Source: a virus (taxonomy: Duplodnaviria > Caudoviricetes). Taken from it: a stretch of 64,000 nt of DNA. A program made the position numbers and the translations under genes. The stretch spans positions 3,050 to 67,049 of IMG/VR virus record IMGVR_UViG_3300021400_000331, one strand, 5' to 3'. This document shows positions 15,123 through 28,645 of the stretch, piece by piece. A model generated the notes under the pieces. It made no database searches and was not told the origin of the DNA. It was given only the letters and a program-made list of their open reading frames with translations. Position 1 is the stretch's first letter. Every line of letters begins with the position of its first letter.

Positions 15123-15381
15123 GTTTGAGTAATTCGTTAAAATCCGGAACTTCAATTGTATTTTCGTCAATGCGCTGCCTGATATCCGGATTTCCCATAC
15201 CTTCAAATACAGACAACAGAACACCCAGAAAACCAAGGTTGCCTTCTGTAGCCTTATAGATACCGACGGCAATCTTGTAAAGATCATCTATACCTTCGGC
15301 GCGGATCTTTACTCCAAAGCTATTGTTTTCATCATCGCTTGTGATCTCCAATAGAGTCCGGGGTTCAAAACTATCCTTCAT
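15106..15381 (-). CDS. Hypothetical protein
   Basis: 91 aa ORF overlapping both neighbours. Confidence 0.7.
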   Translation of the reverse strand: MKDSFEPRTLLEITSDDENNSFGVKIRAEGIDDLYKIAVGIYKATEGNLGFLGVLLSVFEGMGNPDIRQRIDENTIEVPDFNELLKHGNTN

Positions 15382-16639
15382 TGATTTTGAGATTATTAAA
15401 GAATGACAATAAGACTGATTTACTGATGTGATTTTTGTTTTTGTTTAATTTTAATTCTTTTGCCTTGTCATACCAGTATCTCATATTAAGCTGATCATCC
15501 GGACGCGGCAATTCACTGAACGAACATACAGCGCCATCGAAGAACAGGGGGCATACTCCGCCCATTTCTCCATTTCGATTGGCCAAGACATATAAGAACC
15601 GTCCGTAATTTTGCAAACCGGTTCCATCTGCCTGCTGAATAGAATAGCCAAGCCAAGCTGGAAGGCCGAATTTGGATGGATCGAAAAGTCCAAGGACAAG
15701 ATCGGCATCGCGTGCAGTATATTTGCTGTCTCCGAGACCAGCTGCACTCGGAACCATTCTTTTAGCCTTGATTGCCTCCAATCCTTCCGAGTCAGATGCC
15801 TGCTGCTGAATAGCCACACAAGTGAAGTTGTACCTGTTCCGCAGATACTTCACGAAATACTCGCTGGTTTTGTCCACCGCCTCTTTCGTACCTTTGAAGC
15901 CCTGCTCCTTGTCTACAAGCCCGATATGATCTATGATACAAATCTTGTAATGATTCGGATCATACTGCTTGTAAGACTTGAAGACTTCAACATCCTTTTC
16001 AAAGATGCCTTTAGACTTGATCTTTTCTGACTGATAATCACCAACGCTCTTTGCGTATTCCTCGCAAACACGAAGAATGCCGGTTGGATTCGTGTTTTCA
16101 GTCTCAAATCGTACGCACTCCTCGAAGAACTTAAGCCGTTCCTGATACTTTTCACTCTTCAGTAAGTCAAGCGCTTCTATCGGAACTGGATACTCCGTTG
16201 AGGTAGAACGAAGGTCTGCTGGGGCGAGGCGGTATCCATCTATCTTGTAGAGAAGATAGGACATATATCGCTCGATAATCTTCTGAACAGATTCTTCAAG
16301 CGCGAAATAGATAATGTGAACCGAACATTGGTCTTTATGCTCAAACGCATAATCAAGTGCGTGAAAGACATAAATGAAATTGGCAAAATTAGTCTTACCT
16401 ACCTTTTGATTTGCGGATACGACAACATATTGGCCTTGCTCGATTCCGGGAACTTCATTTCTGAAGCGTGTAAAGGGCAGAGGGATGCAGTTTACTCCTC
16501 CATGAAGGACGTTCTGTCTTCGTTCCTCCAGATTGTTGATCACCGCATTCACACTGTCCGCCCCAATCAGGCCCACAGCGAACCCATCGTATTCCTCCTT
16601 GGATAGCCCCGAGGGAGAATCATTTGTTCCTTTTATCAT
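15371..16639 (-). CDS. DnaB-like replicative helicase (SF4)
   Basis: SANQKVGKT Walker A, YFALEES, IIDHIGL, QQQ, LGDSK, NRNG. Confidence 0.85.
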   Translation of the reverse strand: MIKGTNDSPSGLSKEEYDGFAVGLIGADSVNAVINNLEERRQNVLHGGVNCIPLPFTRFRNEVPGIEQGQYVVVSANQKVGKTNFANFIYVFHALDYAFEHKDQCSVHIIYFALEESVQKIIERYMSYLLYKIDGYRLAPADLRSTSTEYPVPIEALDLLKSEKYQERLKFFEECVRFETENTNPTGILRVCEEYAKSVGDYQSEKIKSKGIFEKDVEVFKSYKQYDPNHYKICIIDHIGLVDKEQGFKGTKEAVDKTSEYFVKYLRNRYNFTCVAIQQQASDSEGLEAIKAKRMVPSAAGLGDSKYTARDADLVLGLFDPSKFGLPAWLGYSIQQADGTGLQNYGRFLYVLANRNGEMGGVCPLFFDGAVCSFSELPRPDDQLNMRYWYDKAKELKLNKNKNHISKSVLLSFFNNLKINEG

Positions 16640-25820: not shown

Positions 25821-26390
25821 ATGCATAAGTCGGTGGAAGAATTTAGCGTTAATACGCTTGAAATCGGAGGACTCGGAGCAGCGTTGCAGGCATTGAGGCT
25901 TCCGTTTGGCAAGGATGTGCGTTCTTCGATACATTCACACATTGAAGATCACGATGAAATCAAGAATGCCTTGCGTTATCGAACAGAGATGTTTGTTGAC
26001 GAGAGTGATTCGAAATTGATTTCGACGCTTGTCAAACGTGGAGATGAGCACGCTAAGGTCTTACGTGGGGTTTGCGTTTGGTGCGAAATCAATGCTCCAA
26101 GATATTGGTGGCAGGAATGCGATCGATATTCTGTGGGCGCATGCTGCCTGTCGAGCAATTCAACCATGCATCAGCAGGGTCAGGGCCTGGACGAAGATGC
26201 CCTTGTAGATATGAAGGAGAATCTTACGGAGGGTACTATGCAGAAAAGAGTCTGGATGTTCTCATATCAGACGCTACGGCGCATTTACTTTCAGCGTAGG
26301 AATCATCGTCTGCCCCAATGGAGAAAGTTCTGTGAGTGGATCAAAACGCTCCCGTTTGCGGAAGAGTTCATTACGATAGAAAACGGATAA
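25821..26390 (+). CDS. ThyX-related phage protein (non-canonical)
   Basis: HAKVLRG...APRYWWQECDRY...SNSTMH...SYQTLRRIYFQRRNHRLPQW. Confidence 0.6.
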   Translation: MHKSVEEFSVNTLEIGGLGAALQALRLPFGKDVRSSIHSHIEDHDEIKNALRYRTEMFVDESDSKLISTLVKRGDEHAKVLRGVCVWCEINAPRYWWQECDRYSVGACCLSSNSTMHQQGQGLDEDALVDMKENLTEGTMQKRVWMFSYQTLRRIYFQRRNHRLPQWRKFCEWIKTLPFAEEFITIENG

Positions 26391-26392
26391 TA

Positions 26393-28645
26393 ATGGATGG
26401 CGTTGTAATAGAAACGAATGAATTCCAGACCCCGGTAACAAAGGAGTGGCTTGAATCTTTCCCCGACGATGTACAGGATCAATTCTTGGATTTCGTCGAC
26501 ACAGTACCTCTCATCAAATACATGATAGGTACGGACCGGAAACGTGCGAAGGATCTGCCGAGGGATGAAAAAGGAAGGATTATCGTCGATATTACGCATC
26601 CGCACATCTTGGAGGACATGGACTACTTTCGTCCTGCCGCCAAGTTCTTCGAGCAGAACGGGTGCTATTCTCTGCTCAAACCTAATTCTAACCCGAATAG
26701 TGAATACGGTAAGTGGTTCAACGAAGAGGTCAGACGATGCCGTGAAGGATACGTGAGGGAATCGGACGGTGAGTGGGTCACAGGGCAGATGTATTGGTAC
26801 CTCAACTATTGTCCGATCATGTTGAACAGGCTTGCTCCCGGATCAAACATCTATGTCCGTGTTGAGGAGTTCCCGGATTTCTGGGAAGGGATTTACTATC
26901 GTTTCCATTACATCCAGCAAGCACGTGACCACGGAAAGCATGGAATGGAACTCGCCCGAAGAGGCTCATCAAAAAGTTAATCGCTCGCCTCTATTATGTC
27001 GCACAACCTTATTCTTGGGGAGAATGCTGTTGCAAATCGGCGAGTAACAACCGTCCTTACCGCATACACGAAGGAATACTTGGCAGACAAGGACGGTACG
27101 TTTACGAAGTTCACTCCGATGATTGACTTTTCTGCCGCCAACACGGAGTTTCCTCGGCTCATGCTCAAGCGTTCCCAGTCGGAAATGGTCTGGAGGATGG
27201 GCTATAAGAACACCAACGGGAACCAGATGGGTTCACTTAACGCCGTTATGGGGCTTTCCGTAAAGGACGACGAGGGTAAGATTCGTGGTAAACGTGGTTA
27301 TATCCTGTTCGAAGAAATGGGCAACTACCCCAACTTCAAGCAGGTCTGGGATAACGTGCGAGATTCCGTCAAGGAGGGCTCTCACGTGTTTTCGCTTCTT
27401 TTTGCCGTGGGAACCGCAGGCGACGATGAGTCTGATTTTGCGGGTGTAAGGACAATTCTCTACAATCCGGACGCCTATGAAGTGTATGCGCTCGAAAATG
27501 TGTTTGACAAGAGAGGGAAAGGGACTAACAAGTTTGCCTATTTCTTCCCGTCGTACATTTCCCGAGCGGGATGCATGGACAAGGATGGAAACTCCGATGT
27601 GACAAAGGCCCTGATTGAGATCCTGATGGAGCGCTGGATGGTTAAGCAGGGAGGCGACGCACAGTCTTATCTCTCTCGCGTCGCCCAGATGCCTATAACT
27701 CCGGCTGAGGCTATCCTGAAAGTGAAGTCTAACTTCTTTCCAGTCGTGATGCTCAATGAGCGTTTGCGTCAGATCGACATTGACCCGCATATTTTCGATG
27801 ATGTTTACGTCGGTACGCTCGTTGATGTGGGTGGAAAGGTTGAATTCAGGGCGACAGATGACGTGCCGATCCATGAATGGCCAGTTGATAACACAGCGAC
27901 TGGTGCATTGGAGATATTCTCGATGCCCCCGAGTGGGACGATACCGAGGAACCGCTACATTATTGGTCATGATCCCGTCGATAATGATCAGGCTGAGTCT
28001 TCCTCTCTTTCGTCGACATTCGTCTTCGATCTCTTTACTGACGAGATTGTTGCGGAGTATACTGGAAGGCGCCCTTTTGCCGAGGATAACTACGAGATGG
28101 TCCGCCTGCTTGGTTTGTTCTATAATGCTTCTATCATGGTTGAGGCGAACAGAAAGGGATACTATGCCTATTTCGCCAAGATGCACGCGACGTGGATGCT
28201 GGCGGACTGTCCTGAATATCTGCGTGACAGACAGCTTGTAAAGTATTCAATGTTCGGCTCTGCACAAAAGGGTATTTCAGTAAACGCTGCGCTCATCTCC
28301 TATGCGAATGATCTTATCCGCGACTGGCTGAACAAGACATATCCGGTTGAGGTTAGGGATGAGAAAGGAGAAATTCATATCCAGTACATTCCTCAACTGT
28401 ATAAACTGCGCAATCGGGCACTTATCCAGGAACTCGTAGGATATGGACCGGAAGTGAATACTGACCGTGTGAGAGCACTGGCCCAGGTGATGTACTATCG
28501 CGAACATTTCAATATCCTTTACGGCGGCTCTCCGGCTGCGAACGACGGAGAAAAGGAAGAAGCTGACGATGACTTCTTCGAAAAAGATTGGCAGCGACAT
28601 CTGCAACGTCTTGGCCCGCAATATAAATCCTCTTTCGAACAATAA
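26393..28645 (+). CDS. terL: Terminase large subunit with one internal in-frame TAA (26978-26980)
   Basis: Two ORFs in one frame: ARRGSSKS*SLASIM; downstream Walker B YILFEEMG, GTAG motif III and nuclease IIGHDPVD...DRVRAL. Confidence 0.9.

Follow-up and report, generated by a model that had tools for sequence, protein, structure and literature searches.

The terminase gene and its in-frame stop

The DNA analysed here, hereafter the window, is a stretch of 64,000 nucleotides corresponding to positions 3050-67049 of a linear 67-kb IMG/VR virus record, whose completeness is estimated at 69%, with about 31% of the genome missing. It carries a gene for the large terminase (TerL) of a crAss-like phage, in which the Walker A, Walker B and acidic nuclease motifs of TerL are all present, but the reading frame is closed by a TAA codon right after Walker A. 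The gene consists of the following parts:

26393-28645, plus strand: crAss-like phage large terminase gene (terL), with the internal stop
26393-26977, plus strand: 5' part of terL, 195 codons; comprises the crAss-specific N-terminal region and the first portion of the ATPase domain, ending with the Lys-Ser of Walker A
26954-26977, plus strand: Walker A motif (P-loop), ARRGSSKS (A207-S214 in the numbering of the protein P0001, used throughout), before the stop
26978-26980, plus strand: in-frame TAA in place of Tyr215; the nearest alleles have TAT, a difference of one base (T to A at 26980)
26981-28645, plus strand: 3' part of terL, 554 codons and the terminator TAA (28643-28645); remainder of the ATPase domain and nuclease domain
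26996-26998, plus strand: ATG (Met221), a conserved internal Met and the earliest possible restart after the stop; the listing of open reading frames opens a 549-aa frame here
27299-27322, plus strand: Walker B motif, YILFEEMG, 3' of the stop
27962-27991, plus strand: nuclease motif, IGHDPVDNDQ, 3' of the stop

The TAA is in frame with both flanking open reading frames, 195 codons standing before it and 555 after it (terminator included), which fits the approximately 550 codons counted in an earlier reading made from the letters alone (the sequence-only reading). The motif coordinates also bear out the statement of that reading that the stop parts Walker A from Walker B and the nuclease. The ATG at 26393 is the start common to the 751-aa TerL proteins of relatives, and the listing of open reading frames opens the 5' part upstream, at GTG 26336. 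Both parts belong to the same family: compared with PHROG 6681 (terminase large subunit), the 5' part alone matched with an E-value of 6.4e-11, the 3' part alone with 5.7e-70, and the read-through product with 1.4e-87 over residues 119-737. Moreover, a tblastn search with the read-through product matched 148 phage records, the best of which (57.7% identity) is annotated as a large terminase. The assignment came from the PHROG library, as a Pfam search of TerL gave no match. A profile search of PDB sequences found nothing, and near-identical DNA was not found among phage GenBank records. The AlphaFold2 model of an intact close relative (P0002), built with 28 close homologues, reached a mean pLDDT of only 45, too low for a structure search.

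Among characterized phages, the gene resembles gp19 of Bacteroides phage crAss001 (Steigviridae, Kehishuvirus) and of its Steigviridae relatives; to crAss001 gp19 it aligns as one unbroken tblastn piece with 57% amino acid identity over 93% of the length. The Walker A, Walker B and nuclease motifs all match, and in both genomes terL is followed by the portal gene. Where the window has TAA, crAss001 and all other relatives, cultured or assembled, have Tyr or Phe. The alignment is free of gaps at the stop, in agreement with the earlier remark that there is no intervening sequence, and the statement of that reading that crAss TerL proteins contain KSY, so that the TAA occupies a Tyr (TAY) position, proved right for both crAss001 and cr106_1. 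Judged from its sequence, terL as written is a pseudogene-like allele of the crAss-like (Crassvirales) TerL family, PHROG 6681.

Two other genes of the window deserve a mention. Just upstream of terL lies a 189-aa gene (25821-26390) that matched only PHROG 6721 (unknown function) and had no Pfam match; a crAss001 gene of similar size in the position upstream of terL is annotated as an endonuclease, and a small gene adjoining terL has been considered a possible small terminase (Yutin et al. 2021, PMC7886860). A DnaB-like helicase of 422 aa (15371-16639, minus strand; PHROG 19) aligns only to residues 1-80 and about 360/415-750 of its 745-753-aa homologues in the complete genomes G001 and G002. 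Its smaller size reflects either an insert of about 300 residues in the relatives, possibly an intein, or a deletion in the window.

The stop codon in the nearest alleles and across the family

A search of 5.8 billion proteins yielded two intact 751-aa TerL proteins from independent Logan assemblies, P0002 (locus L014) and P0003 (loci L015 and L016), both of which are 99% identical in amino acid sequence to the part of the window protein after the stop. As whole alleles they share 97-98% amino acid and about 90.5% nucleotide identity with the window. Over positions 26813-26994, L015 and L016 equal the window except for two bases: at 26966, where they have G and the window T (GCA for Ala211 versus TCA for Ser), and at 26980, where they have T and the window A (TAT versus TAA). 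Hence, as read from this comparison, a single T-to-A transversion accounts for the stop in an allele that is intact in all other respects. The change to Ser211 is probably ordinary polymorphism, since serine occurs at this residue in other TerL proteins as well (C 159, A 35, K 7 and S 3 among 204 distinct TerL), while K213 and S214 are invariant in the same set. The window differs from both close relatives at 109 terL positions, and 99 of these differences are synonymous; the gene has therefore been under strong purifying selection along nearly all of its lineage, until very recently. A defect at the tip of the lineage, or an error, would be expected to show such a ratio, and the stop would be either very recent or tolerated.

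To place the stop within the family, TerL loci were pooled from IMG/VR, public metagenome contigs (JGI, ENA and NCBI records), ENA and Logan, which gave 206 distinct sequences. The codons at the Tyr215 site were distributed as follows:

TAT: 121
TAC: 32
TTC: 28
TTT: 22
CAT: 2
TAA: 1 (the window)
TAG: 1 (locus L017)

With the window and L017 set aside, the site thus encodes Tyr, Phe or His in all 205 loci. None of the 206 TerL sequences has an internal TAA elsewhere; the other internal stops of this census are nearly all TAG, with a single TGA (L297, a short fragment) as the exception. The TAG codons sit mostly in lineages with 2-15 TAG per terL, which are the known amber-recoded crAss-like phages, and none of them falls on the Tyr215 site. 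These phages, which are reported to carry suppressor tRNAs (PMC7886860; Borges et al. preprint 10.1101/2021.08.26.457843), have in-frame stops in terL, as the window does, and in other late genes. They differ in that their stops are numerous, stand mostly at Gln, Glu and Lys positions and are common to related genomes, whereas the window has a lone, unique TAA at an aromatic position and a record that yielded no suppressor tRNA. The window allele itself had no match in exact-pattern scans of IMG/VR and JGI metagenomes. Degenerate motif scans for a stop at the Tyr215 codon in IMG/VR and GTDB genomes gave none either, although the Tyr/Phe form was present on at least 97 contigs of IMG/VR. Neither of the two terL fragments was found in an exact look-up among 15 billion proteins.

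The single TAG at this codon comes from a 1.6-kb scaffold (ENA ERZ914845 scaffold_82027, L017), whose product P0123 ends at ...ELARRGCSKS and whose frame goes on after the stop as SLASMMTHN. It was found via N-terminal fragments of similar length, in a search biased towards such fragments. The scaffold is only about 75% identical to the window in DNA and the event is therefore independent of that in the window. The relatives of L017 (P0043 and P0045; 96% DNA identity) encode an intact 750-aa TerL with TAT at the codon, and one of these 96%-identical relatives stems from a sibling sample, as its accession suggests. On this comparison, TAT became a stop in two lineages, as TAA in one and as TAG in the other, and both changes are singletons at the tips. 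A scan of IMG/VR for the L017 allele gave no match. Four further stop-truncated fragments were checked, and they end at codons 206, 223, 227 and 269. We estimate the chance of a coincidence at the Tyr215 codon at roughly 0.02-0.06, which hints at a site-specific cause but is not compelling; the L017 scaffold probably has low coverage, at which errors of single reads can persist. Other crAss-like terL contigs also have one in-frame stop within the 30 codons that follow the P-loop (TAG at codon 227 in L292 and L293, TAG at 223 in L294 and TGA at 206 in L297). The L292 allele, with its TAG at a Gln position, occurs in at least two samples and may represent early amber recoding.

Inteins and a diverged patch at the P-loop

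The sequence-only reading had regarded terL as a target of mobile elements. Relatives of the window do carry elements at this place, but these are in-frame LAGLIDADG inteins and not group I introns. In L013, an in-frame insert of 1,038 nt (L013:3613-4650), with Hint blocks, interrupts the P-loop as ELARRG-AHPY...VQTHN-CGKSY (hyphens mark the insert boundaries). An Rfam search of the window locus and of L013 gave no intron family and chance microRNA matches only. Two neighbouring insertion sites can be distinguished, and the inserts at both match Pfam Hom_end and LAGLIDADG_3 above the cut-offs. Their equivalents in the window are both empty:

26965-26966, plus strand: equivalent of intein site a, between Gly210 and residue 211; 4 codons upstream of the Tyr codon
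26974-26975, plus strand: equivalent of intein site b, the classic P-loop site at the Lys213/Ser214 junction; 1 codon before the TAA

Site a is occupied in L013, L140, P0243, P0245, P0249, P0250 and P0261, in the form ELARRG-AHPY...THN-C(G/S/A)KS(Y/F), and site b in P0258, in the form ELARRGCSK-AHPY...VVTHN-SYSLA. Counted to the third base of the Tyr215 codon, the distance is 15 nt for site a and 6 nt for site b. Inteins in the P-loop of phage TerL are known (Kelley et al. 2016, PMC5050341), including at the Lys-Ser site that relatives of the window use within Walker A, and mycobacteriophage TerL1 likewise has two close insertion points in the P-loop (PMC5050341). Unlike all of these, the window itself contains no intein, and only empty homing sites flank its stop.

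The TerL inteins of this clade occupy further sites besides the two in the P-loop (between G and C and between K and S), namely T360 (THN-TAGD), D546 (VHN-CDPVDNDQ) and N605 (THN-CN(R/K)KG), and some TerL genes of the clade bear two or three inteins. Besides L013:3613-4650, inserts of this clade lie at L013:5641-6834 (the second insert of L013), L140:1174-2187 and L177:2488-3492. In addition, many N-terminal TerL frames on long contigs stop at RFHY(L/I)(D/E)(QAR), about 18 codons before the P-loop, and others at the EEF of Walker B (fragments with these two ends are P0150, P0172, P0173, P0182, P0183, P0190, P0193, P0196, P0199, P0221-P0223 and P0234), while P0021 begins just past the RFHY end point. 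These two end points are probably hot spots for introns or other interruptions.

When L014 (L014:7598-7642) is set against L015 or the window, no stretch of terL is as diverged as positions 26950-26989, around both intein sites: 19-20 bases differ in these 40 nt, against a mean of 3.7 per 40 nt, in alleles that are otherwise 90% identical. All differences within the patch are synonymous, TCN/AGY serine codon switches among them, and the encoded peptide is identical. The patch has the appearance of a conversion tract, or of an escape from endonuclease cleavage, at contested intein homing sites; a donor for the recoded patch of L014 was not found among the 280 loci. The suggestion that the codons TCA TCA AAA AGT before the stop are a co-conversion tract was not supported: the intact L015 allele has the same bases except one. 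A likeness of the window sequence GCTCATC...AAAAAGT to the 5' end of the L013 intein was judged to be due to chance.

Origin of the stop and its meaning

Our collective results make it probable (roughly 0.72) that the TAA is an unprogrammed single-base nonsense change, either a dead variant of recent origin or an erroneous base in a single assembled genome. As far as the alignments go, the stop stands one base from Tyr and is unique to this contig, in a gene and a genome that otherwise look intact and under selection. Among the three options offered by the sequence-only reading, an error or dead variant is thus the best supported, given that the nearest alleles read TAT and that the TAA allele was found nowhere else. 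The change could be either a real, very recent loss-of-function variant captured by the assembler or an erroneous consensus base. The contig is otherwise clean, with neither a frameshift nor another nonsense codon in 64 kb, which argues against a generally error-prone assembly. Provided that the stop is not decoded, translation would end after the Lys-Ser of Walker A and release a 195-residue fragment with no packaging activity, so that a phage with only this allele could not package its DNA; the allele would then be non-viable or artefactual.

It is possible, but in our opinion unlikely, that the cause is site-specific and still non-functional: lying beside two intein homing sites, the Tyr215 codon might be a mutation hot spot at which nonsense alleles recur and are soon lost. 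The changes would arise either from repeated double-strand breaks by the LAGLIDADG endonucleases or from selection, in mixed infections, for base changes that block cleavage. Two independent tip-level changes at one codon (TAT to TAA and TAT to TAG), the inteins at G210/C211 and K213/S214 in close relatives of both lineages, and the divergence pattern of 26950-26989, which is as expected at a contested homing site, are all consistent with this. Moreover, since Tyr codons are only TAY, a purine at the third base must make a stop. However, there are only two cases, the second of which came from a length-biased search, and the endonuclease target is putative. Break repair usually leads to indels or conversion tracts and not to single transversions, and a cost-free escape exists in the change from Tyr to Phe, which 49 of the 204 TerL proteins already have.

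We regard it as still more doubtful that the stop is decoded, either by a near-cognate tRNA-Tyr or by an ochre suppressor with a UUA anticodon, whose gene would lie in the unseen third of the phage genome or in the host, and that such decoding throttles or gates packaging. A single tRNA with a UUA anticodon could read both stops, which are UAR codons at a Tyr position; about 31% of the genome is unseen, and the 99 synonymous changes of 109 are also compatible with a gene still under selection. In addition, Yutin et al. describe a novel TAA-suppressor tRNA in one crAss genome of the alpha group and, in one of the beta group, the first accumulation of TAG codons in terL (PMC7886860). Yet the stop is conserved in neither lineage, the relatives at 96-99% identity reading TAT, and the amber-recoded crAss lineages never have TAG at this site. 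No suppressor tRNA was found in the 67-kb record (about 69% of the complete genome), where the window encodes tRNA-Met only and the other 3 kb contain no tRNA gene, nor in the 96-100% complete relatives G001-G003, which encode only tRNA-Met and tRNA-Thr; the flanks of the closest contigs are without tRNA genes too. In the window, TAA terminates 36 of 63 open reading frames, including terL itself and all late genes adjoining it, and its commonest form (15 of 36) has a T as the next base, as at the internal stop. UAA-U is the strongest termination context in E. coli. With TAA-T as the normal terminator, an efficient suppressor would cause read-through at most late genes. In comparisons with two complete relatives and L014, the remaining conserved genes of the window were all free of internal stops, and TAA is therefore not recoded genome-wide.

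The specific forms of recoding fare no better. Reassignment of the codon does not agree with an internal TAA that stands alone, is absent from relatives and is not avoided as a terminator, and a genome-wide code with TAA for Tyr was discarded because TAA terminates most genes. For programmed ochre read-through, another option of the sequence-only reading, the comparison with close relatives, which that reading had named as a check, gave no support: they read TAT, so the stop is not conserved. To this are added the TAA-T context, the lack of a suppressor tRNA and of any other internal TAA, and the lack of a 3' structure, the 120 nt across the stop (26960-27080) folding no better than shuffled sequences (z +0.5). 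Translational bypassing, as in T4 gene 60 and in g6/g7 of Streptomyces phage phiHau3 (PMC10732093), is a comparable situation in that a stop lies near a mobile-element site in the ATPase part of an essential packaging gene. In those systems, however, extra untranslated bases are present and conserved in relatives, whereas the window has no insert, its stop is unconserved, and the flanking codons AGT and TCG, which are read by different tRNAs, form no take-off and landing pair; a frameshift or hop round the stop was rejected on the same grounds. A-to-I editing was dismissed as well, given that one step cannot turn UAA into a sense codon.

A further reading seems very improbable to us: the Tyr codon would have become a stop twice independently (TAA here and TAG in L017) because it lies inside the homing endonuclease target of the P-loop inteins, a purine at the wobble position would block cleavage, and the phage would survive by rare read-through of UAR by tRNA-Tyr or by a terminase supplied in trans in mixed infections. 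The stop of an essential gene would then be an anti-homing device.

There is scarcely any likelihood that the 195-residue fragment and a 549-residue fragment restarted at ATG 26996 join non-covalently into an active two-piece terminase. The ATG is indeed close, 16 nt past the stop in the window and 9-12 nt past it in L017, and split functional phage enzymes exist, such as the NrdA of Aeh1, which is split by a homing endonuclease gene. However, residue 221 is M in 192 of 204 TerL proteins and L in the other 12, and is not specific to the window genome; since Met221 is present in nearly all intact TerL, the restart Met is not an adaptation. The split persists in no clade, and in P-loop ATPases a cut between the P-loop and the following helix is an unlikely place for reassembly.

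An assembly chimera of element-plus and element-minus alleles, proposed by the sequence-only reading with an intron and considered here with an intein instead, deserves just as little credence: intein-bearing alleles do circulate within the clade, but the window is colinear with intact alleles, there is no gap at the site, no intron was detected by Rfam, group I or other, the inteins occur in relatives only, and neither the two substitutions that separate the window from L015 nor a TAA absent from both parents can be created by mixing two alleles.

An unprogrammed nonsense change, a single base in one metagenome-assembled contig, amounts to an annotation caveat: the record needs a flag that marks its terL as disrupted, and no new biology is implied. 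As by-products, the analysis maps two intein sites in the P-loop of a rumen and gut crAss-like clade and reveals a heavily recoded synonymous patch exactly over both of them. If the recurrence of stops at the Tyr215 codon is real, it would mean that the contest between inteins and their terminase target shapes, or breaks, an essential phage gene.
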